From assembly GCF_964355755.1 (NCBI RefSeq), contig NC_092677.1, positions 22,555,175 through 22,619,174 on the forward strand: DNA of 64,000 nt, in the 5' to 3' direction. Positions within the stretch are counted from its first letter, which is position 1. Every line of letters starts with the position of its first letter. Made by a program: the position numbers and the translations under genes. This document shows, piece after piece, positions 2,280 to 39,937 of the stretch. Origin of the DNA: Antedon mediterranea. Lineage: Eukaryota > Animalia > Echinodermata. Under the pieces are notes generated by a model. The model had not been told where the DNA came from. It saw only the letters and a list, made by a program, of their open reading frames with translations, and ran no database searches.

Positions 2280-5200
2280 TAGTAGAGAGGCCAAATACAC
2301 AAAAGTCCTCTATAAAAAGTTTGGGGGGCATTTTTTGTTAATAGCAGGCAACCATGTTGAATGTATCCTTTGTGGGGTGACAAAAACGATCGGGGTGGAT
2401 GCCATCTTCAGTTTTGGGTTTTAAGGTCAGTTTATGTGGTCAAGAGGTTAAACAAGGTCAAAATATAGGATTTTTTTTTATTCACGGAAAATCATCTACA
2501 TCATCAGATCTATCCAAAAAGGTATATCAACTGATGCTTCATATTATAGTAATTATGAGATAAACATTTAATTTTACACATAAAAACATAGGAAATTAAA
2601 TATAAAAGTGTCATTTTCTCAAAATGTTGTTTTCACATATTTCTGTAAAGTACACACAGTTTTTTAATAGGCTTTTCCCAGTCTGTTGTAAATTTGTCTT
2701 TTTCATGTTGTCCACCAGTCATCGTTTTGATTTTTGTCGGAAAAAATAGGTCAAGTGTTATATGTATGAAACGCCATATGTGCCAAAAGATTGGTCTTTT
2801 ACTATAATATTAATATTACTTATAATAATGTAATACAGTAATATTTAGAAATTTGTTTTTAGAAAAATTATTTATATTACCTATAATAATGTAATAATAT
2901 TTAGAAATTTGTTTTTAGAAAACAGAGACCCCCTATATGGCCTAATGTCGAGATGTTTTTGTTTGGGTCAGAGACCCCCTATAATGTAATTAATTAAACA
3001 TTTTTTTCATTATTTCAATGATACAAGTTTTTATTGAAGTTTGTTGTTTCAAGAAATCTCGAAAGAGAAACCTGGGTATCGAGTTTTTGTTTTCAAAAAC
3101 GCTAACTATTGGACTTTATCAAGGTTGGAAGGAGTGGTAATTGGGGACTTCTTCTTGAGGCCTTCGCAGCTATGCTATCATGGCTGACGGTGATAACAAA
3201 TATAAAACTCCTTAAGTAATTAAGAAGTCCTTTATACACATGGATAAAGACGGTTTTAACGTTATTTACAAACATTACGTTACGTACTGTGTCCAGGAAA
3301 TCCATTTCTCCAAAAAGACACAAACGATTGAAAATTTTCAAAAGATTTCGAGGGTGTAGCCAAGGAAGACTTCCTTCAAATGAGATGCAATCTAAGCAGA
3401 AATACACGAGGACATCAGCTTAGACTTTTTAAACCTAAATTTCACAAAGGACTGAGAGGAGATCCACTTTTTCACAATTATATTTATATATTTTAATAGT
3501 TTGCCAACCAAAGTCGTCATTTCTGAAACCACCAACACTTTTAAAAACTGATTGGATTCGTTGTAGAAATGAGGTTAAAAGGGTAAACAAATGTACCTAT
3601 CTAAACTATCAGAACCAATATTCTAAACACAAACAGTGGATGATTGATCAATTCAAAATAGAATCATTTGTATAACAAGAAACGCTGTAATTCATTGATA
3701 GGTTCTGCATGACATGGTCAGACTTATCACGAATCACACATAATACACAATATTCTTTCGAACTGACAGATGATAAGGAAGATCTTATATTTAAAGTAGC
3801 AACTTATTGAAAGAAAAAAACAGTAGAACTTAGAACTTCATGAGCCACTGAGAAAGCATCGCTCTAAACCTTTGCGGATTTCTATAAGGCAACTGTTTAA
3901 AGTATATAAAAACTGACTGACATCTGCTGATCAACCAATTTTAATATCTTTAACTAAATATGACTTCACATATCATGATGGATGTCGTTGAAATACCTAC
4001 AGATGTTCCAGAAGAAAACTTACAGTAAAAACATGATGGTCATGCACTATAGGATGCAGTAAACATGGCTGTAAACATTTGGTGACTATGCAAGTATTCA
4101 TGCAAGTTACCTAGATATTTTGTTGTATTTGATCATTACATTGGAAAGGGGTGGATAAAAGCAGTGACACGATTGAAAGGATAGTCCCAATGTACTAATC
4201 TGTACTTCCGTATGTGTTTTGGGCCACACTCGGTTTGGAGGAGAACAAATATCACAAAGTTTTTAGACATTCTTTATGTTAATAACAAAGAGCTTGCAAT
4301 TATACATGAAAGCTGATGTTAATTAATGATATGCACTTTGTAATAGTAGCCTTCAAAAGTATGGACGATGTTTGGTATAGTGAACAATAAAGTGGTTGAA
4401 AACCTATTAAGAATAATCTAACCAGCTTCCATGCCATTACAGGTTGCAGCACGTCATTATTTGCTGGTTATGGGAAGAGGTCATACTGGAAATCATTTGT
4501 AACGCATCCACTCCTTGTAAATGGAATTGATTAAGATTAAGACTTTCCACGTACAGTGTACACTAAAGTTTAATATTGCCAAATATATGGTACTCTTGAG
4601 CAGATAACTGTATAATAACAGACTACTCTTTGGTGCTACCTCCAACTAGACTCAGTGACCATATACCATTAACACTAGTGATATATATTTCCCTTAAATA
4701 TTAAGTATTTCACTTCACTCAATAAATATTTAAGTACCTGTATTTCTACTTCGGGAAACACTTAAAATTAAAAAAACTCACCTATGGTGAATACAGACAC
4801 CATAGAACCTAAACATACGAGCCAACTATCAGGCAGAGATCAGTATGTGGCCTAAATGAATCGGGTCGTTTGGAAGCCCCTAACCCAGTTGTCAGTTTGG
4901 AACTTGTTACATGTGTATTATATGTAAACTAAAGAGCCGATGAAGTTGTTACAGAAAGCATGCATATGTGGTTGTGATTCAATCGTTTGCCGTTACCCAG
5001 ATGGCCAGTAGGCATTATATATCAGTGCTTGAAGAAATACCCACCTCAGAGCATTACCTCCTTCCATCCCAGAAAAATTTCGAATATTGGCATGTGCCCA
5101 TGCCGCCCATTACTCCCAACCCACAAACGCTCTGTGACCGTTTTTAAATGAAATTTAAGACATTCCAGTAGGCCTCCAATTTCGTTTTTTTTTTATACTT

Positions 5201-5701
5201 TAGGACTCATCCTCTCAATTCCTTAAACACCTTCCAGGAGTGACTCAAAAAGTTTAAAATCTTCCCAGTACAATTCTGGTCTTTTTGACACCACACTATA
5301 ACCATCAGCCCCAGGCTATCATGAAAATTATATTTATTTCAATTATTAATACCGATAATTAACAGGTATGTGCTCTATTTGACCTTATGACCTTGAAAAT
5401 GACCTTTAAACTTTTAAGTTGAAAAATTGATGAACTTCACCATCTACAGCAATATGTCAATAATGATCCAATAATGGTTACATTTCTTTTAATTAGCTTA
5501 TATGTTGTTGAAAACAGCTTAAACCTCTATTTCACCATATTTGACCTTATAACCTTGAAAATGACCTTTGACCTGAAATTTGAGAGCGACATCCACCCCT
5601 ATCTTTTTTGTCATCCCATAAGGGATATATTCCACATGGTTGCCTGCTATTAACAGAAAATGCCCCCCATGATGAAAAAGCTCACATTGGCCGCCCTACT
5701 A
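2280..5701. mobile_element. Decayed TIR DNA transposon, Academ-like
   Basis: Imperfect TIRs of >100 bp beginning TAGTAG(A/G)G; 3-bp TSD TAA (2277-2279, 5702-5704); removal restores the Gypsy frame PRSYIVHVNG; TAG termini and 3-bp TSD fit Academ. Confidence 0.75.
3100..3570 (+). mobile_element. Degenerate CR1-like LINE 3' fragment inside the Academ-like element
   Basis: Frameshifted remnants resembling a CR1 RT C-terminus (TRGH-like at ~3405, N.LP..VV-like at ~3495). Confidence 0.4.
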
Positions 5702-6105
5702 TAAGATCGTGGGTGGTTTGTGTTACGAACTATAGTACCAATCTTGTTGTGGCCAGCTTTCGTTTGGATGCGTACTGTTTCATTTGGGTTGAGAGGTCAA
5801 AGAGATTTTGCGTGCTTATCATAAGACTTCTTTGTTATGGTATGACGGTGGTTTAGAGAGTTTGTAACATTAGTAATAACTTGTGTGTTGCGGTTGAAGT
5901 TGGTATTGGAGTTTGAAGTCTTCGCGACATGAGACGTTGAGCTGGTGATCCTAAACTGGGGGTGGTTGGTATGTTGCGAATATTTAATAAGTTTTTGTAT
6001 AAATCGGAGCTTTCGCGTTTGGTTTTCTGAAGAAGTATTTTTGCACGTTTGACAGCGCTTTTCGCTAATCCATTTGATTGTGGAAAGGTTGAACTGCTGG
6101 TGATA
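5702..6105 (-). mobile_element. Gypsy integrase fragment
   Basis: ITSSSTFPQSNGLAKSAVK...LLNIRNIP...SPAQRLMSRRLQT integrase core end; contiguous with 2054-2279 once the Academ-like insert is removed. Confidence 0.85.
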
Positions 6106-8023
6106 CAGGGGTAGAATTTCCTCAAAATGCTCCATCAGCAAATAGTTGCTGTGGGCCATGGCTTTACTACAGCAATTTATTTTTCTTCCATCGATCGATG
6201 CATAATTGGCATGATTCATGATTTTGCGCCATTACAACAATAAATAAATAAAAAATACTACTGATTCATTCATAAAGCTTTTTATTCAACTCTGTTTAAT
6301 TACAAAACAATGACACTAAGTGTTGAATCATGTTTTAACACTTATTATCTACTAAATCACTTATCAAAACCTTTTCAATATGACTGACTTTAGAATAAAA
6401 ATTATTATTTAAGAAAAATAAAAGGGAAAGAAATAAAGCATACATACTAAATTATGATTTAATGCTTAATGTTAAACCAACTTGTGTACAAAACAAATAG
6501 CTAAGTAGTCTTTAAAATCTGTTTGTTATAACTATGTTTTTTTAATCATGTTACAACTACAATTAATATTACTATTATTTACTCATCATGGGATTCTCTG
6601 CCACTGTCCACTTCATCATAGGCTACAATGTCAGACTGAGATTCAGAAATGATGTCGTCTATCTCAACATCATCTATAACATCATCAACTTTGGCCCTTG
6701 GTCCCTCCATCTCTCAACTACTGGTGCTGCATCAAACTTCATTGGATCTACACCCTCACTAGTAATACGCAAAAGAGCCTCTACTGTAGTTGCCTTCAAC
6801 ACGAGTCGCCAATCTCCTAGGATGCGTTTAATAGCTGAAAAAGTTCTTTCTACATTGGATGTTGAAATTGGGATAGCCATGATTATTACTACAAGATGTA
6901 GTAGGTCATTATATCGATCCCTCTTTTTTCTTATGATCATTTGCCAAAATGATGTGAATGTTGTAATGTATTTGTTGAGGGTGGCATCTAGTTTCAAATT
7001 GTTGAATTGAACAAGGACGTTGTCAATATTGCAGCCATTCATGATTAAGGAATGTCTGTAATTTTCCACTAACAAATTCACTTCATCTGCTCCATACAAA
7101 TGAAGGGCATCAATATCTTCTTCTTGCCAATTAGTAGGTTCAAATACTAACATTGCACCAAGCTCCTTTGAAGAAACAAGGTTATCAAACCGTTCACTCA
7201 AACATTGTTTGATGGTGGTGTATGTACCTTTCATGTCATGCAAACTTGGAACTTGAGCAAGAGCCAGCTGCTCATCATCTTCATCATCGGAAGGGGTCTG
7301 ACCTCCTAGCAGTCTTAATTGGATGTCAGTTTTGTTGCACAATGCATTCATCTCTGCCATGCATGACATAACCTCCACCTTTACCTCACCAACAGTTCTC
7401 CCGGTCTTCTGAAGGGATAGAGATAATCTAGCAAGGATTCGTAAAATTACGGCATAGAGATGAATGTACACTTTAAACTTTTCAGACTTTAAAGTCTTTA
7501 AATAACCCTTTATTCGGTTCTGGTCATCACCTCTGATATCACGTCTCTGTCCTGAAGCCTGATCTTCTAAATGCACAGTTATAGCATGTATGTTGCGCAT
7601 CATGGCCTCTGTTGCTGCAAGCCTAAATAAAGTTAAAGTACAGTACGTTGTTTTGGTTTTCAAATGAATCAATATATTACAGTATGTTGTTGTAGTTTGT
7701 ATTTTTGTTATCAAGACAAATACAATACTGATGGAATAGAGAAAGTGGTGAGCCTGACTGAATTACATCAAGATACTAGACTACCCACATTAAAAAACAA
7801 ACAGCGACTGGTTAATGATCATGTAACTGTGTTTATTTGGGTACAATTGGAATACAATTTGTAATTCAATGTCCTACCTGTGAGCAATCCACCGTGTTCC
7901 AGATGCCTTTGGTGGCTTTACTACCGTCTTCTCAATCCTCCTTCCTATTTCCCTCAACTCCCTTAGTCTTTTTGGTGAATTACGATACAAATAGTGTATC
8001 CTCATTAAATGTTCATCAATGAC
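6106..8023 (-). pseudogene. 3' half of a ZNF862-like hAT transposase with probable element end at 6106
   Basis: Exons 8023-7878 (YLYRNSPKRLREL...GTRWIAHR) and 7622-6674 (SNVERTFSAIKRI...LLRI, hAT dimerisation domain), matching phase-2 GT-AG intron; CAGGGGTAGAA terminus at 6106 exactly where Gypsy homology stops. Confidence 0.85.
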
Positions 8024-10789
8024 CTGAAAAAATAATAAATAACTACTACTACAATAACAATAATACACACTCTAAATCAAGATGTGAATGATCTAGGCCT
8101 GTGAGTTTGATGTGTTGCTCGTACTGACCGCTTTAATTCACGATTTCGGGTCCATGTAAGACCGAGGTTCGTCTTCAATGAAAGCAAGTCGCCTGTTGGT
8201 AGTTTTATAGGCTTGCGGAGAAGTTGCTTTAGCTCTTCTGGCAGTCTTCTGACTTCATCCGTCATTTGAAACATTGACTCACCACCACTGACCACATCTC
8301 GTACTACCTCAACTAATTTTGTACGATTTCGTACTGTCCTCTGACCAGCAAGTGATGAATCAACTCTGGCCTTCGGTATTATAATAGTTTGTAGTGTCTT
8401 AAATAAAATATAATAATTGTTTTGATTGATCTTTTTATAGTTTCTTTTAACACTTTGTTCATACACTAATATTGTTCATTATGTTTTATTTTAATTATGT
8501 AATTTTTTATATAGACTTACTTGATTCTAATAACTCTAATAGGCAATTCTTTAATGTTGACACATTTTAAGCTACTGTTTACTGTAATAAATTACCTTTC
8601 CTTTAAATGTGAAGTCTGCCGTGCGTTTCTTTGAGCTTTCTATCTTGGCTTTTATAATATGAGTTGTGTAACTGGTTGGTTTGGTGGATGGTGCAAAATG
8701 TCTTGGATTAAGTTATTGTTGTGTAAGTCTGTTGGTGTTGGCATGATATGTGGTGAAGTAGAACATGTAGGTGAAGCCAATTGTAATCATGGTCAGAAAC
8801 ACAAACATGGGTAGACGCATCTTTACATTCAACTACAGTTCGACAACATTTACAAGTCACATTTAAAGACAGATAACATTGAGCAAATATTAGTTGTACA
8901 GCAGTAATAGATGAAAAATGGACAGGAATGTTACAAACACAACACTGAACTGTGTCAGTATCCTCATAAAGAGGCTGAACACAGGTCTTACATGTAATGT
9001 GTTGACATGGAGGGACAACAGGACACTGACAAAGAAGTTTACAAATATTACATTTAAAAGAATTCATAGAATTACTTGGCACAAATGATGATGGTACTGG
9101 GGTGAGAATGGGTGGATGTAAGTTACTGAAATGTTTTGTGATGTTTTGTTTATGGCGCAATGTCTGTATGTAAATGGAAGAACCGAGGCCACGCTTCTTT
9201 TTGGGGGGTCTTCCTCCCTTTTTTTGTTCCTCAAACAAACCACACGCTTCACACGATGTTCGTTTGTGTGGTACCCACTTCAGGGGTGGCGCCAGGATCT
9301 TCCCGACGCGGGGGCTACATTCCCCGACGAGGGGGCTATGCGAGCGAAGCGAGCATCACTAGGCTGGGGGACAGGGGGCCGCCAAGGGCCCCCGGTGGGG
9401 TTCCAGGGGGCGAAGCCCCCGTAAGCAACGCGTTCTAGCGTCATTTGAGGTCATTTTAATCAGATTGAGGGTAGCCATTTTTTCCATTTGTTATAATGCA
9501 TAAATAAAATACTGCGTGCAAAAAAACGATGCGCGATGACTGTTTCAATCCATATTTTTCAATTTAAAAAATAAAAGTTCAAAGAAAATTTTGAAAAATA
9601 GAGTTGGAGGTCCCTGAAATTGGACTTATTATACTTCAAAACATGAAACAAAATATATCAAGTCCCTATCAAGAGGTTGTGACTGAGCTAAGAAATGTTT
9701 GAAAAATAGAGATGTTAGGTCCCGGAAAATGCACTTTTTATACTTCGAAATATGACCAGCTTTATTGTTGGGGCTGAGCTAAGAAACTGTTTAAAACTAG
9801 AGCTGCAGGTCTTCAAAAAATTGCATTTTATACTTCGGTAACATCAGGCCTAGAGGCTTAAAAAACGCAAGCGTAGACCTTTTTCAGTCGGGGAAATAAG
9901 TTTATTCCTCCCAAGTGTATGCGTGCGTACCATCTGGACTTCCGAGTGGTGAGAAATTCATGACATACAGGACATTGAAAATGTAATAACTTAGCTATAA
10001 TAAGATGTTGGCTAAGCGAAAATGGCATGTTTTTTTGTTTAGTAATGGATGAAAAATTTATTTTAGGTGCCCCACGGTACTTACTTACTTGTAAATTAAA
10101 AAAATTGGTGAACATACGAACAATTAACGTAATTCGTTTTTGCTGTAGTGTAGCGTACGTCGACGCAGTACACGACGTAACCGTCGGTAAACTTCGCCTG
10201 GAAAACATAGTTGCCATTTCTGGCATTATTATGCTTTTTGGCATTATTTGGAGGCCCACGGCATCTGGCATAATGCCGCGGCATTATTTAGCCGTTTTTA
10301 GCATAATCTGGCATAATTTTGTGTTTTTTGAACAACCAAAAAAATAATATTACCACAGAACAAAAATAAAATATTTTGTTAATACATATCACCTTACACA
10401 ATATCATATCGTAAAAACAGATCTGTTCGGGTTTTCCGTACAATAGTTCTTCCATCCTTTCGTTTCGGACTTCATCGACTCTTCGGATAGGAAGGCTGCT
10501 CGAAAACTACCGTGTGTGCGATATAGGCAGCACAACAAATCCGAAGAGGCTAGCTATTGGCCAATTATGTTGCTCTATTTCAGAGACCATGCAGGTTATT
10601 GGATCCCCAGATATAGAGACGATTGAACGAAAACATTATGAAAGGGGTTTTGTTTTTTCAGTTCATAATCATAAGTGGCCACACCCCTACCCCAACCCTT
10701 AAAATGGCAATTTCCGGTAACTAGAAGCTCTAATTTTAAAAAGAATTTCTTCTAGAGAATTTATTTTCCATATTTCAAATTATGTTCCA

Positions 10790-11930
10790 TTTGCATCGTC
10801 GTAGCAACCCTATATTTCCAAATGTTCTTCACCTCTCAGTGACCATGATGGGGCGAGGTCCTAGGGACTCTTATACATTTTTATAAAATTAAGTGCAATT
10901 TCCGGCCATCTAGCAGCTCTATTTTTTCAATTTGTTTTACCTCAGCCCCAACCATGGTGGGTCTGAGGTCCTGGAAACACTTAATATATATTTTTATTTC
11001 CTATTTTAAATTATAATTGGCACTTTCAAAACTATCGTGGGCTAAGATCCTGGAGGTACTAATAAATATATTTTTATTTCACATTTGAAATTAAGTGCCA
11101 TTTCCGGCCATTGAGTGAGCAGCTCTATTTTTTTCATATTTTCTTAACTCAGTCCCAACCATGGTGGGGTTGAGGTCCTGGAGACACAATTAATATATAT
11201 TTTGATTTCCTATTTTAAATTATAATTGCCATTTTCAAACTATGGTGGGCTAAGATCATGGAGACACTAATAAATATATTTTGATTTCATATTTTAAATT
11301 AAGTGCCATTTCCGGCCATCTAGCAGCTCTATTTTTCCAATTTGTTTTACCTCAGCCCCAACCATGGTGGGGCTGAGGTCCTGGAAACACTTAATATATT
11401 TGTTTATTTCCTATTTTAAATTATAATTGGCACTTTCAAAACTATCATGGGCTAAGATCCTGGAGGTACTAATAAATATATTTTTATTTTATATTTGAAA
11501 TTAAGTGCCATTTCCGACCATTGAGCAGCTCTATTTTTTTTCATATTTTCTTACCTCAGCCCCAACCATGGTGGGGTCGAGGTCCTGGAGACACAATTAA
11601 TATATATTTTGATTTCCTATTTTAAATTATAATTTCCATTTTCGAACTATGGTTGGCTAAGATCATGGAGACACTAATAAATATATTTTTTTTTCATATT
11701 TTAAATTAAGTGCCATTTCCGGCCATCGAGTAGGTATTTGTCCAAATTTTCTTATCAACCATGGTGGGGCTGAGGTCCTGGAGACACTCAAAATAATTTT
11801 TTTTATTTCCTATTTTAAATTATAATTGCTATTTTCTAATTATGGTGGGCTAAGATCTTTTCATATTTGAAATTAAGTGCAAAGATCCCGGCCATCGAGC
11901 AGCTCTCATATTTCAGTTCAAAAATTATAA
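10790..11930. repeat. Internal ~200-bp tandem repeat array
   Basis: About five diverged units containing ccatggtggg..gaggtcctgg and aagtgccatttccggccatc. Confidence 0.85.
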
Positions 11931-11949
11931 ATTTCCATGGCTGCGTAAC

Positions 11950-13571
11950 CGTATCCGGATATTCACCCCCTGGACATTTATCCCCCGGACAACTACCCCC
12001 CGGACAACCACCACCTGGACCACTACCCCCTTAGGACAACTACCCCTTTAGGACAACTACCCCCCGGACAAATACACCCCGGACAACTACCCCCTTAGGA
12101 CAACAACCCCCTTAGGACAACAACCCCCTTAGGACAACTACCCCCCGGACAATTACCCCCTAGGAACAATTACCCCCGGACAATTACCCCCCGGACAATT
12201 ACCACCCAGAAAACTATCCCTTTAGAACACCCTAACCACCCAGACCATTCAACAACCTGACTCTGCAACAGTGTATAATAGGAATTAATAACTATATTTT
12301 AATTCGTTACTTTGACGAATTACTATTCATTATTGTAAACAAAAGTAAAAGATTGAACATAAATATAGCCTGGTATAAACTGAAGATTGTCACACATGAT
12401 CATAGGATAGTCGAACGTATTATATAGTACTAATAATTTTTGCGTCAGGACAATGCTTCGATAACCACTGGTCTTAAAAGAATTAATTTTTGTCTCAAAT
12501 TTGTCATATATGTATTTTTGTACACTTGAAGAATAATATGACTTTTGATATTTGACCTCAATGTTCACTCACCGAATAAACGTCGATCTTTAAATAAATT
12601 CCCCTGAAATAAACGGTGACCATGTCACTCCCATGAAACATCATATGGAATAATCGGCGTCTATTTCCATTAGATTATACCCCCTCCCATTGAATAAACA
12701 ACTTTCTTCCAATAAATGTCCACCTAAAAACCACCTAAACAATAAACAGCCCATGCCGTTTTTTCAATAAATACGGTACTTTAAATCTAGCACATCTAGG
12801 GTCTAGCGTGCTGTTAAACAGAATAATCGGTTAAAAACGGGTGTTTTGAAACTAGAGACCCGAGACCAGAGACCAGAGACCCGAGACCCAATACGAAAAG
12901 GGAGACCTAAATATACGAAAAGGGAGACCCACGTACGAAAAGGGAGACCCCATTATACGAAAAGGGAGACCCCACTATACGAAAAGGGAGACCCCACTAT
13001 ACGAAAAGGGAGACCCCACTATACGAAAAGGGAGACCCTAATATACGAAAAGGGAGACCTAAATATACGAAAAGGGAGACCCAATTATACGAAAGGGAGA
13101 CCCAAATATACAAAATGGGAGACCCAAATATACGAAAAGGGAGACCCACTATAAGAAAAGGGAGACCCACTATAAGAAAAGGGAGACCCCACTATACGAA
13201 AAGAGAGACCACACTATACGAAAAGGGAGACCCAAATATAGGTCTCCCTTTTCGTATTGGGTCTCGTGTCAGGTCTCTGGTCTCGGGGGTCTAGTTTCGA
13301 AACACCCGTTAAAAACAGATGATTTCATTTTTACAGAAACCGGTCCTATATATTTGTCTACTTTTGGATGGGGGGGGGGGGGTAGTTGACCGGGGGGTAG
13401 TTACCCGGGGGGTGGTTGTCCTAAGGGGGTGGTTGTCCGGGGGGTTGTTATCCTAAGGGGGTAGTTGTCCTAAGGGGGTAGTTGTCCGGGGGGTAGTTGT
13501 CCTAAGGGGGTAGTTGTCCGGGTGGTAAACATCCGGGGGGTAACTGTTTAGGGGGTAGGTGTCCTAGAACC
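11950..13571. mobile_element. Foldback/MULE-type element with minisatellite arms
   Basis: (GGACAACTACCCCCC)n left arm and its reverse complement as right arm; imperfect 9-bp flanks ctgcgtaac/ctatgtaac; same family inverted at 54110-55479. Confidence 0.8.
12839..13307. mobile_element. MULE-type MITE with internal 22-23-bp tandem repeat
   Basis: TIR GGGTGTTTyGAAACTAGA; perfect 9-bp TSD GTTAAAAAC at 12830-12838 and 13308-13316; internal (TATACGAAAAGGGAGACCC..)n. Confidence 0.9.
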
Positions 13572-13899
13572 CTATGTAACAGGTTTTTTTTTTTTTTGGG
13601 TGGGGTAGGGGGGTGGGGGTTGGTGTTGGTGTCATTTGCAATTACCATTTTCGCACCCCAGATATTTAGAATTATTATTTATTACTCACAAAACTAAAAA
13701 TATAAATTTTGTACGACATGGGGATACAATTTTAGGCCCTATTTTGTGTCAGTTGGGGTTTTACAAACGTTTATTAGACATAAAACCGTTGGTGGCGCTG
13801 TTTAGGGCCACATTTTGGGGATCTGGCATTATTTTTCCCAATCTGGCATTATTTGAGACAGGATACGGCATAATTTAAATTTTATTGCTGGCAACGCTG

Positions 13900-14518
13900 C
13901 TGGAAAATAACTACAGTACACATTTTGGTCCCTGGATGGAACATGATATCACGCGTCTCGACCCAACGTTGAACGATTCGTACAAAGGGATACCGCCAGA
14001 CAAGTGCGAACCTAGCTATTGTTTAGTAGTAAGTTAGATCGCTGGCAATAATGAATGCATATAAAGTGCATAATATCACTCTGACGTACTCTCACGGTCA
14101 ATGGAACGTCGTGGTTTTCTAGGCGCTGAAGCTATATGAAGTGAACGCGAACGCTTTTTACTGTATATTATATTCCCCGACAAAAAGTACCCGTGTTCCC
14201 TTCGGTAACCGTCGGTAAACTTCGCCTGGAAAATAACTACATTACTCATCTGGATGGAACTTGATATCACGCGTCTCGACCCAACGTTGAACGATTCGTA
14301 CAAAGGGATACCGCCAGACAAGTGCGTACCTAGCTAATGTTTAGTAGTAAGTTAGATCGCTGGCAATAAATGAATGCATGAAAGTGCATAATAGCCCTCT
14401 GACGTACTCTCACGGTCAATGGAACGTCGTGGTTTTCTAGGCGCTGAAGCTATATGAAGTGAACGCGAACGTTTTTTACTGTATATTATATTCCCCGACA
14501 AAAAGTACCCGTGTTCCC
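13900..14518. repeat. ~310-bp tandem duplication inside hAT family A
   Basis: 13900-14200 nearly identical to 14226-14518. Confidence 0.9.
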
Positions 14519-15332
14519 CGACGGGGGGGCTAGACTCCCCGACGAGGGGGCTAGAGCCCCCGTAGCCCCCCCCCCCCCCCCGCTGGCGCCACCACTGACC
14601 CACTTCGCCACTCTTCCCAATGGTGTATTGTTGTCGATTTTTTTGTAGCAGAATCTACACATATATGGAGGGTGTACCCTTCAACATCGAGGGAAACATC
14701 CAGGCCGGTTATCTTGTTTTGATTTTCTTTAATTTTTGATTTTCTGTATTCAATTTTCCCATTATTTGATTTGTAAGGTCTAATTCACCACATAACCTAC
14801 ATAATAATTGAAGATTGGCTAAGTGGTCCTCCATAATTGGTCTTGTTATCACCTACATAAAAAAAAAACTAAAATTAAGCCGGTTTTTAAACAAAGACAA
14901 ACATTTAAAATGAATATTTATCAACAAAATAGAAAATGTGAATTTTTCATAAAAACTTTTATTATTTAATAAATCGATAATTTATGTATCTAACAAATAT
15001 TTGGAACTGTTTTAAAGCAATGTGCCTAGAGAATTGGAGGTCTGACTAATATCGGACCTATTTAACCTTTCGATAAACGAAACGTTTTGAAACTTTATTT
15101 CCTAGTAGATTGTTTTATTATTTATAAAATTCAATAAAAAAATTCTTACTTTTATTAAGTTATCGTAGTAAATTTTAACATTTACCGAAGTTTACCGAAG
15201 TTTTAAACTCCCCGTGGCTCGTGTCGAACGTGCGCGTACGAGCTACAAGTACGTTGCTACGGGAGCCGCTGATTACGCCCTCTATTTTTCGAAATCTCAA
15301 TTTCCAAACATCGCACTAGCGAGACGTACGTG

Positions 15333-15479
15333 CCGGGGGCTTCGTCCCCTGGACCCCCACCGGGGGCCCTTGGTGGCCCCCCCCCCCCCCCCTGCCTAGT
15401 GATGCTCGCTTCGCTCGCATATAGCCCCCTCGTCGGGGAATGTATCCCCCGCGTCGGGAAGATCCTGGCGCCACCCCTG
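15333..15479 (-). mobile_element. Solo inverted left end of hAT family A
   Basis: Reverse complement of 9281-9421; interrupts a Gypsy gag frame at 15480; no matching TSD partner found. Confidence 0.88.
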
Positions 15480-15870
15480 TATCCAGCTTCTCCTAAACTA
15501 CTCAATAATATCGCTCTTTTCTTACCTCCGTCATTGATATCTAATGCCACAAAATATTGTTCCAGCCTGTCCACACATACGCATATGTCTCCATCTGGAT
15601 GTTAAATTCCTCGAATAGAATTCTGGTATTACTATTAGCCGCTGCCATTGTACCGCGCTTCGCTCTGTACGTTCAGGGCGCTCGGAATCGTTAATTAGCC
15701 TGTGCGGTTCCTTGGTTACGGTTGCCATTGTTGGAAAGCCTAGGCCTAGCTAGAACTGCTAGCCTAGAGGCCTAGGCTAGGCCTCTAGGCTAGGCCTAGT
15801 TCTATAATAATATTATTATTATTATACTTCCGTTTCTCTATGTAAATGTGCCTGCATCCCCGTCGCCAGT
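15480..15870 (-). mobile_element. Gypsy 5' region (PBS and gag N-terminus)
   Basis: DRLEQYFVALDINDGGKKRAILLSSLG gag motif; minus-strand ...CGACA-C-TGGCGACG LTR-end/PBS signature at ~15861-15874. Confidence 0.75.
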
Positions 15871-18689
15871 GTCGTGTATCGTCGTACCGTAGGTTCGTGA
15901 CAAATTAATAACACACGTTGAGATGAGTATAATAACAATGAATGGGTTTAATGAAACAAAAATAGACAACAAGTATATGGATCGTTCGTAGGATAACCAA
16001 AGAACTTATAAGTTCTTTGGGATAACCTAGCAAGGAGCATATGCGCAGTATGCGCATCAAGCGGGGTACACAATAAAGTTAGTGTATTGAAAGTACATAA
16101 TTTTGTCCTTGTGCTGTTCTTCCTATTTTTCATTAGGTCTTCACATAAGGATAGTAGCGATTGTAAAATAAAGCTACTTATTAAGTTACTTTAACAAAAA
16201 CAGAATAAATTTCAATAAACAGAAACAATACAAAAATAAAAAGAAACTGTATTGTGTAATGGTGGTTTCGGAACTTGTTTGTGGTACAAGCTCCTCCTAT
16301 TATTAGAATGAATACAATATGCCATACGGTGACATATGGTGGTCTATGACAAAAGAGAACAAAACCCTATTTTAAAAATTCATGAAGCCAAATGATGACG
16401 TCATACCATTTTGTACGTCTATTGTGTAATATACATTATCTACAAACTCGTATAGCACTATTTTAAGTCGAAATGGACTCGAATTTGGTGAATGTACTAT
16501 AGAATGGAATTTGTACAAAAAATTGTTATTTTTTACGCTTTCTATGTACGCACGCGCAAAAACGTGTTTTTGCGCAGTAATTTTTTAAACACGCAAATGA
16601 CCTAATTCATGCTAATTGATCAAAACGTAATTTTGAGCTTTTTAAATTTTTTTTTTTTTTTTTTTTTAAAGAATTTCTAATAACAGAAGATGTTTTTTGT
16701 TGGAAGGTTTGCAAATGTATATGTGTATGCTTGTGCTTAGGCCTAGCAGCAATAGGCTGGTTAAACTATAGCTAAAATACTCTTTGTCGCACTTGTTAAT
16801 AGACTAGTAACTGGTAAACAAACCCAAGGTTTATATAAAGAGCCAGGAATTAGAAGAAGTTTGACAGATCTGTGACATCTTGTTTGTGCCCTGTCGAACA
16901 TAATAAATACATCTAACCTCGTTTAAAAACAAATTCAGCAGCATTAAAAAGATGAACTCTTGGTGAGACATTGCTTGTTTAATTTAATTTTTTTTTTTAA
17001 CAAAAAAAAAACAAATATGAAGTTAAAAAAAAAAAATTCTACAAGTCGTCAAATTATAGTATGTAAATAAAATACCACTGTAACAACATTACGATTGTAA
17101 ATTTACAGATTTTACCAGAAATGACATAGGCCTAGATTCTGTAAACCTGTAAAATCGGTACAATTTCGTCATTTACAGTTACTGGTAAATAACATTTACC
17201 GTTACCATTATGTTAAAGCTCAGGTACAGGCATGCATTTTAAATATAATATCTGGTTAATTGTACATAAATCAAATATTTGTAACAGAAATCAAAACGAA
17301 AAAATAGGATTTTCCCTTGATATGGTCAAATGCACAATTTGGCAAAATTCTGCCATAAAAACCAGGAAGACTTTTTTTCAGTAGTTAGGTAGTTTAACCT
17401 AATGTAATAACATGTCTTGTGACTCCCTAGAAGGTGAAAAAAGATGGTGGATATACGGTGGATAATTGTTGCTATAGTATGAAAATAAAAATCTAAAGTT
17501 GAATAAAAATACCGGAAATGTAAAATTGAAGTTATATTACCTATATTTAGTCATCTGATTCATCATCATTTTTTACCACACCGTTAATTTTTCATAGCTT
17601 TTTGAAATGCCTCTCTATTTACAAAATTTGTGTACAAAAGAATAGAGATTTTACTGTGTAATTTGAACTATCCCCCACTGATAAGAAAGTGCTTATTTTC
17701 AACAAGCTCGTGTAACACAAATAAAATCACAAACATTCTAAAACATAGGGGAAACTATAGATCGATAATTATTGGAATGTATGATCAATAGAAATTTTTT
17801 GCCCGCACTTTAAAATAAAACACAAGCAAAATTAATCACAAAAAAAAATGACATTTATTAAAATACCCGACATGTAAATTAACAAAAATTATGTAAATGA
17901 TGTGTTAATTTAACAAGACTACTGTTGTATATTACAGAAATCATTAAAATACAAATACTCAGAAAACATTTTGTAAGGTTGGACAGATTTATAAATACCG
18001 TACATGTAAAGTTAACATATATTATGGAGATTGTAGTTTAATTTTCAAAAACGAATGTTATACTACAAACAACCTGTTAAAGTACACACACATTATATAT
18101 GTAAAATTACAAATATTTAAATATAAATATGTTTTTTACGATAAAAACCTGTAAATAAAATACAGATGAATTTTCTCTTTCTTAGAGTTTATGAGAATAG
18201 AAATATTTAAAAAGTTATAACCGTCAATTTTAATGTAGGACATCACACTCAATGCGGATAAACGTTATTTATAAACTTGTTTATACACATAATTAGATTC
18301 TCCGTATACATCATACAGAAAAAGTGTCTATTTGGAGTGCTAAAGTAGGCCTGTATAAAGTTATAGCCAGCAATGACATGTCAATGATTACAATGTCACG
18401 CTCTTTTTCGATCATGTGACGTGAATAGGCAATTTCATAAGTGCTAGTTCAGGAAAAAGAGATTCAATAGCATGTTCAAAGACTACATCGTATCATGTAA
18501 CAAACAAAGACAGGAACTTCCTTTTACTATATAAATTCTTGTTTCATAGTCAATATTTAATGTAGGGCTACGTTTCAATACAAAAGAGCGTGATGGAACC
18601 AATACAATGCATTCTGTAAGTAATAATTATTTATAACTCTTTAAATCAAAGCTTTTAACCCTTTAAGACCTTAATCATCATGTCGGAGT

Positions 18690-18880
18690 TTGACTGTACT
18701 TCATGATTTCATTCATTGTATTGTTGTGTCAATGCGCCATGAGCATCTAATTTGTGATGGAAACCGGCGCAATATAAATAAGATTTCCTTATTAATATTA
18801 CGCACAGATCTTGGAAAACACAGCGCTTTGAAACCTTTGTCTCTTGCGCTTTATAAATGTTATTTATTATTATTATTATT
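18690..18880 (+). repeat. Two short L2-type LINE/SINE 3' tails
   Basis: GCGC...GCGC(a/t)(a/t)TATAAAT stem-loop tails ending in (TTA)n, resembling tails at 39870-39937 and 45758-45836. Confidence 0.5.
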
Positions 18881-21800
18881 CTTATTTGTCGGTTATCTCC
18901 AGTGTTCTTCTGGGTTGTTGGTCATGTCTCAACTGCTTCCCAATAACACTTTCTTAATATGTGTGCTGTTCCCAGGATGGCCGACATGTGAGCGGTCCCT
19001 ACAGAGCCGGTACATTTAAATTTTCATGCATGTTTTTGCATTTTTGGAAATTGTTCCAACAGCGCAAATTATGATTGGAACCACAATAACTTTTGCTCTG
19101 TGGATTTTATTGATTTCAAAAGCCAGATCTTGGTAATTTGTCTACCTTTTCTTTCTCTCTGTTTAGGCTATTATGTTTTGGTTCGCTGTCAGCTATGTCA
19201 ACCAATGTCCACTCATATGTGGGCCTACATTTCTTCACAATAGTAATATCAGGTCGATTGTGTTTAATTTCTTGTCTGTGTAGACTGTCATATCCCAAAT
19301 AATTCGAATGGGTTTTTTTCTGTGACTAATAATGGCTGATGGTCATACCATTTTCCAGTACAGTCGATTCCCGATGTACTCGCAATGTTACCTTGTCATG
19401 ACGCTTTCTATACCCTCTCTGGGCGAGCACCTTGCATCTACTGATATGTCTTACAGTTTCAGTATAGTCTTCACACAATCTACATAACGGTGTTTTTTAG
19501 AAGTCTTATCTATACTGTATTTTATCGCATTCGTTCTTACAGCTTGTTCTTGAGCAACTAGTATTAAACCTTCTTCACAAAACCATTCCTAAGCTACAGT
19601 ATCTACAAGAATCGTCTCCTGATACATCTGCTGTTTGTCGCACAAACTCTCCGTGTAGGGCTTTCTCTTTCCAGCCCTTGGTTTTCTCCTCTAGCCGCCT
19701 CCTCTGATAATCTATAAGATTTTTTTTTTCATCTAACACCTTCTCCTTTAGAGCAAATTGCAGCATCCACTCTGTAGTATTTGTTAGGTAGCCACGCAGT
19801 GACTTACTCTCTTTCCTTACACAGTCCTCAATGCTGATCAGCCCTTTTTCACCTTCCTTCTTCGGTACATATAGTCCCATGACATTACTTCTGGTATGCA
19901 TACTTCCAATCATTGCTATGATTTTTCTAGTTCGTCTGTCGATGTTGCCAAGTTCTTCCACCGACCAATCAATTATTGCGTGAGGCCACTTATCATGTTT
20001 CCCTCATTTAGTTTAGATTTACATAGATCTTGTCTTCATCTTGGCATTAAGAATCTTATCTAGCTGTAATATACTCATGGTATTTGTAGCCGTCTTCTCC
20101 AACCTCTCCGATATGTTGATCGTCAAACAAATGCAATCCACTACAGACAATCTGTCTACCTTTTCCATTTCTAGAACCGCACACTTCCAATATCTTGTGA
20201 AATACAACCTGAAAAATCTAGTCTAGTATATTTTTATTAAATCCATACAACTTCAGAGTCATCCATGAACAAAAGATGGTTAATTATTATGCTTCACGCC
20301 CTTTTCAAATTTATAACCCGCTCTCACCTTCCGTAATACAAGGGTCAGTGGCAGCATGATTAAGACAAACATTAACGGTGATAAGTCTCCTTGGAAAATT
20401 CCTCTTTTGATGTCCACTTCCCCGATATCTAATCCGCTTTATGTCTGTATGTACCGTTTTCCAATTCGACATGCTATTCCTTATCACGGTTATCATGTTC
20501 TACGCCCCACAACCATCTCTAAGCATTTGAAAATCCACGAATGTGGTACCATGCCATAAGCTTTTTATAGTCTATCCACGCCATTGACAATTTAGTCAAT
20601 CTTCTTCGGCAATTCTTTAGGCTTACCTTGTCTACCAGTAAATGGCCCTTTGTGCCTCGTCCTCTTTTTCTGCAATCTTTTTGTTCATCAGCTAGAATGT
20701 TGTTCCTAATCAAGATGGTACAGCTTTTTTCCTAAGATTCGGCCATATAGGCCATACTGCGTTGAAACACCGGTTCTCATCAGATCACCGAAGTTAAGCA
20801 ACGTTGGGCCCGGTTGCGTTCTGGAAATAGCGGCGGGTGCTGTACATAAGCCAGAGAGTGGCCGAGCGGTTAAGGCAGGGGCGCCGCCACAAAAACCATA
20901 GCCATACAATCGGCCCAGGTTAAAGTCACTTTTCGACCATTATTCTGGTGGTAGAACAAGTCTTCTCGGATAATGACTTAAAACTGGAGGTCCAGTGTAC
21001 ACATCTGGCTACACACCAGTACATCTTTTTCGGAAGAGTAGGGGATTACCCTGGTGTACAGGTCAATTCAGCCCCTGTCGTTGTGGACAGACGAACAGGC
21101 GCCGTTTAGTAGCAGCACTTGACACAAAGGGACCCTTAGGGGAGTAGAGAGTTGTGGTATGTGTTGTCCACACCTATGCGTAATTCAGCCCAGTAGGCTG
21201 CGAGTCGCAGGTTATTCCCACATTTACATTTACATTCCTGTGAGTAGTTTCCACATTTTTGGCAGACAGGCAATAGGACGAGTTATTTGCCTGGGTGCCC
21301 TTTGCAGGAGTTATTTTTGAATTAATACTGTTCTTCCTTTTACCATCCACTCAGGCACATTTCCTTGGGACATACAGTCATTCAGGTGTAATGCAGAGGC
21401 ATTTTAAAACCAGTATCCATGGACAAGGTCAGGTTCTTCAGCTGCCTTCCAATTTGTCATCTTATTAACTGCTGTTCTGATACCTACTATAATTATTTTT
21501 ATATCGTCTTGTATTTCAATCGCATTGAACTCTTCCTCAACCTCTTCTAGCCAAGAAGCACACTCTTCCGACCAAATGTTTTCCCAAGGGTTGTTCTAAC
21601 TCTTCTTCAGGTTGTTTTAGCTCTTCTTTTCCCTTTCCCTCCAGAGTTTGATAAAAACCGTTTCTGGTTTGTTCTAAATTGGCGGTTCTGTTTGAACTGT
21701 TTACATCTTTCATCATATCTCCTAACCTTAATTCCTCCTGCCTTGATTTTCTGCTTTAATATGTCTGAAACTTGCCTTTCTCTTCGAGGCTGTATTTTCT

Positions 21801-21960: not shown

Positions 21961-23580
21961 GGATCAATATTTTTTTTTTCTGTATATGTTCTTCTTTCTT
22001 TCTCGCTATTTTTGTGCATCGCGTTTCTCTAAAATGTGTAAACATAACATTTCATAACCTTGACAACAAGTGGCCATTTACGTAAAGTTGTGCGCCTTCT
22101 AGTTTGAATGACGTCAGAGTTGCGCAACGTGACTTAAGCGCGATTTTAGGATTTTTAATGATTGATCATAGATTAAAAACTAAGCTTTATTTTTTTTTAC
22201 ACTTGGTGAAAATCTAAGTCATATCAAGGTCAAACTTGCTATGGATTAAAAATGGCATGTTTCACAAGAAGTTACGCGCGCACGCGCATTTTAAATTTAA
22301 AAATGCGCAAAATTAATTTCTAATCAACTTTCTACGCTGATCATGACATTTTGAGGATTTCAAAAATTCCCGCGCGTGCGAAACAAATTACGCGTAAGGT
22401 GCGCACGGAGTATGAAAAACATGGTTTTTTTCCTTGGATTATATTTTTCAAGCCTTTCCTACTAATTTTAAAAACAATTTAGACCTTTTCACTTTAAATA
22501 ACGCCATACGAACACGTTGAATTAGATAATTCGCGCGCATTTTTGATGAAAAATCTTAAAAAATCGTCAAAATAATGTCTTTTTTTTTAAACAGTCATAG
22601 TTTCTAAAGTAAACCATGAACCTATTATTTTTATTACAAAATCTAGAAGTTAATGAGTTGTAGATATCGATCATGCATCAATTAGGCTAAAGAAACATTG
22701 TGACGTCATCGTATGGCCACACGAATGTAAAATATAGGATTTATGTCTCTTTCGTTACTGCTCATAACATTCAATAGAGCGCATCTCGCTTATCCGTATT
22801 CAATTTGCCCCGAGATTTTAATATTGTCTAGGTCAATCAACTATCTTTCGCATGAGTTAAAAATATTTTAATTTTTATAACGTCATCATGCCTAAAAATT
22901 GTAATTACGTGTGGCATTAATTTCATCTTTACAGTGAATTTTAATCTGTTATAGCTCGTAAGAATAAAATGTGATAATCACAATTAAAACGTTTTCTGGA
23001 AGATACGAATTTATATGCACATTTTGCCAATCTGATGTTGTGACGTCATCATATGGCCACTTGACTTAAAAAAGTCGTATTTTCATCTTTTGCGTCATAG
23101 TTCATTACATTTAAAAGAGCGCGCATCAATATTTCCCGTATTCAAATTTCTCAAAACTGAGATAATTTCCTCCCGAAATTGCTATCTTAGTGTTTCATTT
23201 TGATACGGAACCATGTTAAAAATGGCGGGTTCCGTAATTTCACCTATTCTACACTGTATGTAATATGTATACAGATTATACTGTTTATACTGTATATACT
23301 ATATGACACAAAATAGACAGAATTCAGCACTAACATATATTATAACAACGTATAATATTCTTCAGTACAGGTCATAATGCCATAATCTGTGTGCAATATT
23401 CCAACGTATGACGTGCACGTGGAGTTTGTCGTGCGGATAAATAACTCATCAAAGAGTTATTTGTATTATTATTATTATTATTATTTGAATTATATTATTG
23501 TACAAATATGTCTTTTTTATGTGATTAGTTTGAAAAGGTTTTAAAACATTTTTTTATTCTCAAATTTTCTTGTTTTCAAG

Positions 23581-24909
23581 TTTGCTTGTTTTAGTAACTT
23601 CTTCATCAGCAGACGATTGGTTGATATGGACAGAAGTGGACACAAGAAACCCATCGGTACCGGCTGTAAAAATTGTAACTATGTCTGCAAATCTATCGAA
23701 ATATGAAGCAGGCACAAAGGCAGATGTTGAAAAAACGTTAACATTTAATGTTGAACCAGGAAAGTTTGTTGCTTTAGACACTGACAATACCGATCAGACG
23801 GTATTTTTCAGTGCTAGCTTGCGCACGTCGGTATACAAAGCAAAATTATTTGCAAATAATAAGAGTGTTAGTGTAGTAATCGATAAAACCTCCAAAAATG
23901 TTGAAGGAATTGCTGTCGACTGGCTGGCAAAAACTCTATACATTATTGACCAGACATACAACTGGATTTTTCTAATCAATTATAAGGACAATCGACGCTA
24001 TGTTATTTTGGTGAGAGAAGGATTAGACAAGCCACGTGGAATAGCAGTTCATCCAGTCAAAGGGTGATATAATATTTTTTTTAATATTATTCATAGCAAT
24101 TTATTATTTAATGTTACTTTGACAAGAAATTATTAGCAATAAATATATACTGTACATTTAATTTAGTACATGTCACCTTTTCTCTACTACAACAATTTAA
24201 AACCCGACAGTTTAGCGCAAGTTAGCGAGTACTTGAAAAAGGAAGAAATAATAAACGGCGGGTAATAAATGTCAACAGAAGGAGTTGAGCAAATAATAAT
24301 CATTTTCTAAAAATGCCTTAGGCCTATTGAACGTGTATTTATTTAAAAAATCAGGAACATCTGTCTTTCTGGCCATATAAATTCTTTCTTTTACAGACTT
24401 TTATTTTGGAGTGACTGTGGAAAAGTGCCGAAAATAGAAAAAGCAAATCTCGATGGAACAAACCGAACAGATTTTATCACCACTGGTATTACCTCGCCTA
24501 ACGGGCTCTCTGTTGACTATGCCGACAACAGGTAACTTATACTGTACTAACAACAAAACAAATTGCAATTGTTCTATCGGATATATATACAAACACAGTA
24601 GGCAAAGAACATTAATTCTAAACCGCCCGGTGATATACTGAAATTTAATTAATTAATTTGAAACGATAAAGATGAGGAAATCTGTGAGAATGAGAAAAAG
24701 TCGCCCCAACCGAGACTCGAACTCGGACCGTCTACTTGATATGCAGTTGCCCTAACCATTAGACCACTGGGGCTTTCATGGTATTGTTCAAACTCGATTG
24801 GATAGCGACTCTTTAACATTCTCGGCGTGGTACGGCGGAACCAACAGCACTAGTCCTCAGTTGTACACACGCGCAACAGAGATCAAATTGATACGCCCTC
24901 ATCTTACAG

Positions 24910-24946
<37 letters not shown>

Positions 24947-27900
24947 TAATTTTATAAAATGAACATGTTGGCTCACTTTGCTGCTTTGATGTTTAGACTT
25001 TATTGGACAAACGTTGATGATGAATATTCTAAGGTTGAGTCATGTGACCTTAATGGAGCATATCGACGCATTCATTTCAGAAAGCCCAGGTTTACATCTG
25101 AGTTTTTTAAGTTAAAAGTACATAAGGTAATAATGCAGAGTAAAGTACATGGCTTAGTTAAGGAATAGTTTAATATATTACTATTACTAACTAATAGGTA
25201 AATTTTTAAAAAGATAGCGTTTGCTGCTTTTGTTTGAAGTAGTTTTAAAAGAGTCAGACTTACAAATTATTATTAATCTGCTTATAACGTTCTCAATATT
25301 TTTCAGGAACATGTTTACATAACTGACTGGAATCACAAAGTATGGGGTATTCATAAACCGTCAGAACAGGTCTATTTTTACGTAGATTTGGATTGGCGCC
25401 CATATGGAATTTCAATATCATTCGAAGATGACAGTCAAGTAAATCAACAATGTATGTAAGACATTCTAACAACGCAATTGTAAATAAAATATTGTTGGTT
25501 CATTACAAACGCATACAAATAAATCTTCCTAATTTTATGTAGGAGTAATCTGAAGATTGCATTATTAAGTTGGTAATTTCTTGTCTTCATCTTTTTAGCC
25601 CCTTGTTTGAGCAATCCTTGTTCACATGTCTGCACTAGTGCTGAAAATGATGATTACAGATGCGTGTGTACAGACTCATTTTATCTGTTGCCTGGTGGAA
25701 ATCTATGTCAGCGTGGTATGTGAAAGAAAGTCAACAGCAATAAAACACAAGTTATAGCTTGCAGTTTGTTGCTTCATAATACAGTTAGCAACAGTATTTT
25801 TAACAAGAAAAGTGTTATTAGATAAAGATGAATAAATGTAATTAGAAAAACAATTGAATTGCCTTATCAACAAAAGATCACGTTACTAAATGGTTCTACA
25901 ACTCTTTATCTCGTCCGCTTAATTTTGTCTTAATCTATAAGCTAATTGCTGTTGTTTTTTCCTAGATGGATTCTTCCCTACGCCAGCTTTACTATACTCA
26001 AATCAAACGTCTATCCGAAAACTCAAAAACTTTCCGTATGCTCTCTCACCAAACGATGCTATTGACGAATTGCTATACAACCAACATCTCATAATTGCAT
26101 TAGAAGCAGACGTCACACGACAAATTTTGTTCTTTTCGGATGAAAGTGTTAAATCAATCTTCAGCTTAGATTTAAAGATAGCTGCTAAACCAAGGCTGAT
26201 TTCTACAAATTTGGGTTCAGTGAGAGGTATATTTGCTGTATAAATCATACTACCTTCTGGTTCCGTGTAACTATTTATTTGTGCTATTGTAATGTTGTAT
26301 TAATTTCTTAGGTATTGCTATCGACTATCTATCTAAAACACTGTACTGGACTGATTTTACTAATAATCATGTCATGATGTCATTTTATGATGGGCAGTAT
26401 CGCCATGTTGTGATTCATACAGTGCAGCCAACGAGTATTGAAGTTGATCCAATTCACCGGTAATTGTTACAAAACAAGTATTATTATTTATTTAGTGTCA
26501 CATTTTAAAGCATAAATTGTTTTATAACAAAACCAATAAAATTAAGAGAGCAAATTAATTTTAATAAAGCAAAATCTGTGTCCTTTGGTAGATATATATT
26601 TTGGATAGAGCTTGGAATATATTCACATATTGAGCGTGCTAGACTTGATGGAAGTGAAAGGAAAATTATTGTGAACTCCCAACTGGGTAAAGCAAGTGGA
26701 ATGACTTTGGATTTCAAATCACAAAGGTAGAATAGAATATTTCTAACGGTAAATAGATAAGTATTAGGACGACGACTTCCACTTCTATAATCTTTTGACA
26801 TCTACTAATTCCAACAACAACCTCCACATGTTTACGAATTTAAAACATTTTTGCTTTAAGATTGTACTTTGCTGATATATCGTCTGGTGCTATACAATCG
26901 GTTGATTTTGATGGGGAGTCAAGAAAAGTTGTATACGTTGAAGCGGGCTCTGTTTTTTCTGACATAGACATTTTTCAGGTAATAACAAGATAACAAACAT
27001 TGTATTTCCTGGATGATTCCATCCCCAACAACAAGGCAACATTTCAATTAAATGGAAACTTTAGGTCAAAAGTTTAGCGACAAATACACCTTTTAATATA
27101 AAATAAAGTCAAATTTAATATAAATAAAACATAAACATAAAGTAATGTTTTTATTCTGTATAACAAATTTGTTTTAAGTATTTAAAAATAACACTTATTT
27201 CGAAGGATCTTCTGATATGGAGTGAACTCGAAAATGGTCTACATTTTTTTAATCGAGAAACTGAAGAGTTCTTGTATTCTACACCAACTCCTGGAAGAGT
27301 ATACGGAATTGTTATGCTGGATTTCACGCGGCAACCCAATGGAACCAGTAGGTTTTGTCAATCATACTCTCACATGCCATGTTATTGTGGCCGTTGAATT
27401 AAAAAAAGCATAATATCATTCTCACTCCTGAGCATATTGATCGAAACGTCGAGAAACTCAATAGTTCTTTTCAGAACTAATATACGTGGTGTACCACAAA
27501 CCTTCGAACGACATAATATCTTTAAAAAACAACAATATATGCAACCCATCTTTTCATTATATTTACCAATATTATTCAGTACCTTAACCTATGCCGCACC
27601 AAACTGTTCTTTCTATTCTTAAGATAAAAAAAAGTTTGTTTAAAATTGATAATTCTTAAAAAAATTAATAATAATAAATTAATAATTAAATCTTTAAATA
27701 GAATATCAGTAACATTTCATTTTATCTTATATGTCACATAATATGTGATGGAAACGGTCCATTTACTTTACCTCCGTCACAGATGAGCTGTGGTATTCAC
27801 CCATAGGCTAAAGAAAACAAATAATTATATCTCTAATATTTTAATAGAGAATACAGTAACATTCAAAGTTATTAATAGTTATTTATTTGTAACGTTACTT

Positions 27901-39400: not shown

Positions 39401-39937
39401 TCCACTGCTTGGTAGAAGGTCTTTTGCAGCAATAGCACCTTCATTATGGAACAAACTTCCACTCTTTGTGAGACTTGCTCCTTCAGTCAGTATTTTTAAA
39501 TCACGACTGAAAGCCCATCTGTTCTCATCCGGTATTAATTAACTTATTCATTCATTCATTTATTCCTTCCCCGAAACCTTGACTCAGAAATACCGGGATG
39601 GTGTCCGGCGGGGGATAGTTTAACCCTAGCTTAAGTTGTGCATGCTTCATTTACTCTCTATTCTTAATTCTGGCCCCGAAACCTTGACTCAGAAATACCG
39701 GGATGGTGTCCGGCGGGGGATAGTTTTACCTTAGTTAAGCATAGTTAAGCTTAGTTACATTTTTTTTTTTTCACATTATTGATTGTCTCCATCCCCGAAA
39801 CCTCGACTAAGAAATACTGGAATGGTGTCCGGCGGGGGATAGTTTATTACCATTAGTTAAGGTACTATGTAAAGCACCTAGAGGGGTCAGTGATCCATTA
39901 GGCGCTATATAAATACTGTTTATTATTATTATTATTT
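36439..39937 (+). mobile_element. Near full-length L2-clade LINE ORF2 (APE endonuclease plus RT), frameshifted
   Basis: WNARSI, AITESWL, AGDFNLH, GHTLDL, SDH in 36439-37944; NYRPISNL, DLTAAFDT, GVPQGSVLGP, YADDTQLY, LHWLPV in 37985-39415; stem-loop plus (TTA)n tail. Confidence 0.93.

Follow-up and report, generated by a model that had tools for sequence, protein, structure and literature searches.

Probable 5' remnant of a dead Chapaev transposon with a RING, within a nest of mobile elements in Antedon mediterranea

The link between the N-terminus of RAG1 and Chapaev transposons carrying a Chapa zinc domain and a RING has already been published (PMC4411706; bioRxiv 10.64898/2026.01.24.700457), and the layout of Chapa domain, RING and further zinc finger is in print for Chapaev subgroups (PMC4411706). 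DUF1280 is equated with Chapaev transposases in PMC3985635; CxxC and H-x(3-4)-H motifs are listed for the CMCT clade in PMC12730594, and target-site duplications of 2-4 bp are given for CMC elements (10.64898/2026.08.26.747230). A first listing of the motifs is found in PMC1131882. RAG1-like (RAG1L) transposons are described with cores ~27-33% identical to vertebrate RAG1, 5-bp duplications and RAG2L pairing, and their families with wide variation in the nonamer-binding domain (NBD) region (10.1101/100735). Here we analyzed a window of 64,000 nucleotides from Antedon mediterranea (contig NC_092677.1), AT-rich, intron-bearing animal DNA in which an earlier note, made from the sequence alone, had proposed a hidden transposon with a RAG1-like N-terminus, broken by a 5.3-kb insertion. 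We are confident, short of certainty, that this is what remains, at the 5' side, of a dead Chapaev transposon with a RING, lying in a nest of mobile elements; the remnant has its probable left end at 15332, keeps the initial ~400 transposase codons and is cut off before the core.

To find relatives, we ran an exhaustive protein search with the RING-bearing open reading frame (ORF), which yielded 92 proteins, the top two of them full length (951 and 975 residues). The window was read on the minus strand over 2400-19600, with the coding parts translated in three frames, and the joined peptide aligned with the 951-residue relative P0001 with 41% identity across 411 columns and a score of 300 bits, without loss of collinearity between Met1 and residue 396. 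P0001, P0002 and P0036 all continue from there into a DUF1280 core (7.5e-23 for P0001) with D-D-E, CxxC and H-x(3-4)-H motifs; the second-aspartate motif served as a search seed, and its count among the relatives is therefore partly built in. Chapaev had been among the candidates of the earlier note, and it is the one that these nearest full-length relatives single out. Among metagenome contigs, 65 of 434 candidate stretches encode a relative, with head and core together at seven loci, and a viral scan returned one locus with a RING-only match. Separately, one protein of 1239 residues (P0005) lacks a DUF1280 core and has repeated Chapa-RING modules alternating with CXXC zinc fingers; it may be a fusion or a gene-model artefact.

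The peptide emerges only when the insertion is taken out. The earlier note had removed 9281-14605, an interval made up of a 5317-bp insertion plus one copy of its target-site duplication, since 14605-14598 and 9280-9273 carry the same 8 nt; once both are removed, the HPPYMCRFC frame meets the WVPH frame in register. A 15-nt end motif is found with zero mismatches at 9281 (plus strand), 14597 (minus) and 15479 (minus), and at up to three mismatches it matches the window five times against 0.34 expected. Parts of the stretch are present in nine public sequencing runs from three studies and two organisms, none of them listed as RNA, and the best of them may be the window's own sample; in one run, X5 (study P2), a single 1762-nt contig provides the insertion-free form, spanning 15333-14598 and then 9281-8269, with the same length and depth when aligned to either side of the insertion. 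The duplication, the inverted ends and this contig together bear out the rejoined element, with the insertion boundary corrected to 9281-14597.

Head copies elsewhere also account for the broken frame. Relative to the window, contigs of four of four runs aligned to the 14606-14834 side carry 4 additional nt at 14783 and 1 at 14676 (X1 has both forms); on the other side of the insertion, four of four runs lack 2 nt at 8781 and three of four carry 19 additional nt at 8658. With these indel lengths filled with N and the GT-AG intron at 8595-8398 removed before translation, the joined, spliced frame from the ATG at 14834 runs for 410 codons with zero stops (X at the breaks), whereas without indel correction the best version of the same frame has eight stops (acceptor placed 10 nt off); the frameshift-corrected, spliced peptide of the earlier note is thus upheld. 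The uncorrected window copy is frameshifted at codon 17 and reaches a stop after 41 codons from the start codon, so it can encode at most a 41-residue peptide from that codon and is incapable of autonomous movement. As for splicing, 15 of the 92 homologous proteins end shortly past the position matching the window's first intron (GQ|V), as would be expected from read-through into an intron; in the metagenome loci, alignments break at P0001 residues 386-400 (18 starts, 7 ends), many at AG|GT-type boundaries, and related loci break at residue 393, which matches the window's exon end at 8129. Homologue ends and clustered breaks therefore support both predicted splice calls, no spliced read having been seen; an X5 contig retains the intron, X5 being only guessed to be RNA. 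The parts of the element, in the order of the minus strand, are as follows.

15303-15332, minus strand: likely Chapaev left terminus, beginning CAC, boundary ±1 nt (hAT-end similarity stops at 15334; depth; X5 contig start)
14606-14834, minus strand: start codon, then the opening portion of the Chapa (NZD-like) zinc domain; 4-nt and 1-nt deletions relative to other copies (Chapa profile)
14598-14605, minus strand: upstream copy of the 8-bp target-site duplication (identical to 9280-9273)
9281-14597, no strand assigned: insertion of a putative non-autonomous hAT-type element, 5317 bp, with 15-bp terminal inverted repeats and, inside, tandem arrays and probable nested elements (ends, repeats, summed depth)
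8596-9280, minus strand: remainder of the exon, with duplication copy, W-x-P-H...C-x2-C, basic patch, RING, finger and linker; 2 nt longer at 8781 and 19 nt shorter at 8658 than other copies (46% identity to P0001, E 2.7e-36)
about 9277-9242, minus strand: W-x-P-H...C-x2-C (by hand from the joined frame)
about 9217-9188, minus strand: basic patch (by hand from the joined frame)
about 9052-8933, minus strand: C3HC4 RING (RING matches; position by hand)
about 8854-8801, minus strand: C-x2-C...H-x-C finger (by hand from the joined frame)
8398-8595, minus strand: predicted GT-AG intron, 198 nt, phase 0 (frame; homologue ends)
8129-8397, minus strand: exon called NBD-like in the earlier note, a conserved Chapaev segment preceding the catalytic core (54% identity over 92 residues, P0001 305-396)
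8104-8128, minus strand: start of a predicted phase-2 intron, 25 nt long up to the cut that ends the element at 8104 (related-locus breaks, contig ends)

The zinc-binding head agrees with published Chapaev architecture. Its joined frame reads H-x7-C-x2-C, HP-x3-C-x2-C and W-x-P-H-x4-C-x2-C, followed by the basic patch, the RING and a C-x2-C-x12-H-x-C finger. Profile comparison, which the earlier note had suggested for the peptide, gave an E of 0.03 for RAG1_imp_bd in 14606-14834, below the cut-off, and succeeded with a Chapa profile built from 31 homologous heads: the two upstream fragments rank first and second among 2809 six-frame pieces (E 2.6e-4 and 3.1e-3), and the best E in the reversed-window control was 0.36. 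By motifs, profile and by-eye comparison with supplement 5 of PMC4411706, the ligand pattern of the domain fits type I, and the RING and second zinc finger are both present downstream. In that supplement, by eye, Chapaev-1/2_BF and Chapaev-1/2_NV have the same order of W-x-H...C-x2-C, KGGRP-KK, RING and finger. RING-bearing Chapaev elements with a type I Chapa domain, as described, likewise share H...C-x2-C, HP...C-x2-C, W-x-P-H...C-x2-C and a second finger ending H-x-C (PMC4411706; bioRxiv 10.64898/2026.01.24.700457); the window element probably starts with CAC as well, and its nearest full-length relatives have the DUF1280 D-D-E core, whereas the window copy differs in lacking core and right end and in being interrupted by an insertion. 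The finger called ZFA-like in the earlier note is real as a finger, although its form differs from the classic C2H2.

Several observations weigh against the Chapaev assignment. The core on which classification depends belongs to relatives that are 41% identical in the head, not to the window's own family, for which 30 letters past 8104 could be read; the right end and its target duplication were not seen, only the CAC end at 15332; inverted ends in 16 of 66 related loci amount to no better than 13-of-16 matches with no evident duplication; and the structure model of P0001 is poor (mean predicted local distance difference test, pLDDT, 45.6). In the window, the CAC end has no partner, and tblastn of three full-length relatives against the 64 kb found nothing past residue 444 and no catalytic core. 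The 24-nt left terminus has no exact match among the metagenome contigs. The element is likely an addition, now dead, to the Chapaev elements that bear a RING, placed at the level of the group rather than the family, and what novelty the earlier note had hoped for is lost at that same level, the layout being one published for Chapaev subgroups (PMC4411706).

Around and within the remnant lie further elements, of which two adjoin it directly.

15334-15479, minus strand: hAT-type end, 146 nt, of the same family as the insertion, with the Chapaev element starting directly after it (91% identical to 9281-9421)
6677-8023, minus strand: 3' half of a hAT transposase with exons predicted at 8023-7878 and 7622-6677 and with no sign of the N-terminal half (Dimer_Tnp_hAT 1.9e-8; splice sites by hand)

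At the upstream border, depth is ~100-fold lower below 15332 in X1, an X5 contig starts at 15333, and contigs of X1 and X5 extend ~3.6 kb from 15478 into DNA not in the window; a second minus-strand copy of the 8 nt that precede the 15479 end is lacking, which leaves that end unpaired. The whole nest is flanked by gag-like (15480-15660) and integrase-like (about 5700-6190) frames on the minus strand, and the hAT-type end interrupts the gag-like one. By their motifs, both are tentatively long terminal repeat (LTR) retrotransposon sequence; Pfam gave no relevant match. Inverted arms at 2322-2433 and 5558-5669 (112 nt, 81% complementary, 3.1 kb apart) probably belong to another DNA element, which cuts the integrase-like frame.

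The insertion itself is probably of hAT type, to judge from its 8-bp duplication and short inverted ends, the signature described for hAT elements (PMC3014272); uptake of extraneous DNA, another trait described for non-autonomous members (PMC3014272), has a parallel in an interior packed with tandem arrays. Its end is extremely abundant by summed contig depth in four of four runs aligned. No transposase was found inside it, and its hAT family was not identified. A GC-rich tandem array of 15-17-nt units at 11948-12230 and 13370-13570, within the insertion, recurs at 54110-55480; inverted arrays make 11946-13567 resemble a nested element, inside which 12822-13324 looks like another.

Taken in sequence, a hAT-type element, itself an interruption of LTR-retrotransposon-like sequence, would have received a Chapaev element in its end; a deletion would have removed everything beyond 8104, placing the head beside the hAT 3' half; a high-copy non-autonomous hAT-type element would have landed in the Chapa domain; and small indels would have accumulated in the head, the last three events perhaps in another order.

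The junction at 8104 raises the least unlikely of the alternatives, namely that Chapa-RING head and downstream hAT half belong together as a single chimeric element or gene, with the donor at 8128 spliced into the hAT exon. The two parts share a strand and lie 105 nt apart, four of the eight AG sites between 8103 and 8021 allow an in-frame join, and the hAT frame has 48 + 316 codons free of stops, yet splicing from the Chapaev donor to the strong polypyrimidine acceptor at 8024 would break the frame. X5 has a loose end at 8104, contigs of three runs (X5, X7 and X9) run on past 8104 into non-window DNA, with 206 letters beyond the window in X7 and 204 in X9, and depth changes sharply at the junction in X5; in X5 and X7 the hAT half is covered far less deeply than the Chapaev part. 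Moreover, the hAT piece starts past the N-terminal half, has no similarity to P0001 and no match in 66 related loci, and bears a 204-nt deletion in the second organism (organism B), while the head is frameshifted at codon 17 in the window copy. Run X3 has 35 extra letters at 6704, near the end of the hAT frame, and the window's hAT C-terminus is therefore probably frameshifted. We accordingly give a single chimeric unit very little credence. That the 8104 deletion nonetheless created a real chimera, with the RAG1-like head spliced in frame through one of the weaker acceptors at 8070-8043 onto the hAT C-terminal half, strikes us as equally improbable; if true, it would be a RAG1 N-terminal module caught moving between transposase superfamilies. 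Word-index searches, covering longer proteins only, returned no match for the RING ORF, the hAT ORF or the post-finger exon, which is weak evidence given that the exhaustive search found relatives.

In organism B, the head (8104-9281 and 14598-15318; runs X6, X7 and X9) is nearly identical to the window, with zero differences across 8104-8598 in X7, and the adjacent hAT half in X7 is ~5-6% different from the window. The near-identity suggests recent activity or transfer, although collapsed contigs and paralogous copies could also explain it.

The kinship with RAG1 is confirmed for the non-core region. For a profile built from three full-length relatives, significant matches include mouse RAG1 102-379 (3.4e-20) and the NZD structure 21WB (7e-9), and the homologous NZD, basic patch, RING and zinc finger are shared with RAG1 and RAG1L/ProtoRAG (TransibSU), bearing out a transposon remnant with a RAG1-like N-terminus; TransibSU is described without a RING, unlike the window element (PMC4411706). 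Beyond the finger, significant sequence resemblance ends. The relatives have no significant sequence match to solved RAG1 cores (one core stretch, -0.5 bits), and the Pfam RAG1 core family is absent from all six long homologues scanned, of seven such among the 92 proteins. In structure alignments of a low-confidence AlphaFold model (three sequences), their core is 10-12% identical to RAG1 and BbRAGL (Foldseek E 8e-6), and the Atlas model has a template modelling (TM) score of 0.51-0.56, by query; by fold, the core appears RAG1-like but remote.

These comparisons bear on the proposal that the window holds a RAG1L/ProtoRAG-type remnant with a divergent NBD. In its favor are the homology to RAG1 102-379, the CAC at the terminus, the wide variation of the NBD region across RAG1L families (10.1101/100735), and the fact that the window family's own core was not seen. 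The post-finger exon, however, matches DUF1280-core proteins (54% to P0001 and 41% to P0002) and gave zero matches at E up to 10 to RAG1, BbRAGL or Transib chains, a weak test, as RAG1L NBD regions diverge; of the earlier note's spliced NBD-like exon, the splicing survives and the NBD label does not. Nor did a Pfam scan of 22 frames from the window turn up a RAG2-like kelch gene (the element has lost its 3' part), the propeller ORFs scanned being Ldl_recept_b. With relatives' cores so distant from RAG1 and BbRAGL, a little-described family close to RAG1L is not borne out, and we hold this reading to be slightly less credible still than the chimera; the Chapaev remnant is probably commonplace genomic debris, not a new RAG lineage. 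The Aplysia Chapaev rows of supplement 5 are presumably the element N-RAG-TP. N-RAG-TP of Aplysia resembles the window element as a transposon with a RAG1-like N-terminal region (PMC8355894), whereas those rows show no RING (PMC4411706).

A host gene, such as a domesticated RING ligase damaged in this haplotype or mis-assembled, is scarcely plausible: the insertion-free form is open over 410 codons (X at breaks) and X3 contigs carry the alternative indel form alone at both 8658 and 8781, but in X1, X5 and X7 the head exceeds neighbouring low-copy DNA severalfold in summed depth, a rough guide, internally deleted variants exist, X1 has both indel forms, and the sequence begins at a CAC end inside another element.

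Intact members of this Chapaev family would presumably encode a cut-and-paste D-D-E transposase of ~950 residues that acts on ends of the CAC type and carries a two-zinc Chapa domain and a basic nuclear-targeting patch; by analogy with RAG1, the RING would act as a ubiquitin ligase. The family looks young from its near-identical contigs in two organisms, and an intact copy may therefore exist, which would provide material for what the NZD-like domain and the RING do in a real transposase, roles that bear on the origin of the RAG1 regulatory N-terminus. By itself the finding is of little weight, and the locus is a clean example of nested insertions.

Elsewhere in the window, exons for LDL-receptor class B repeats and for a trypsin-like domain (23534-32204, 42301-42798, 50928-51275 and 59958-60692), apparently tandem-duplicated, are likely host genes. 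Long overlapping frames with long interspersed nuclear element (LINE) endonuclease and reverse transcriptase occupy 36430-39415, and more reverse transcriptase fragments are found at 517-1344 and 62396-63391.

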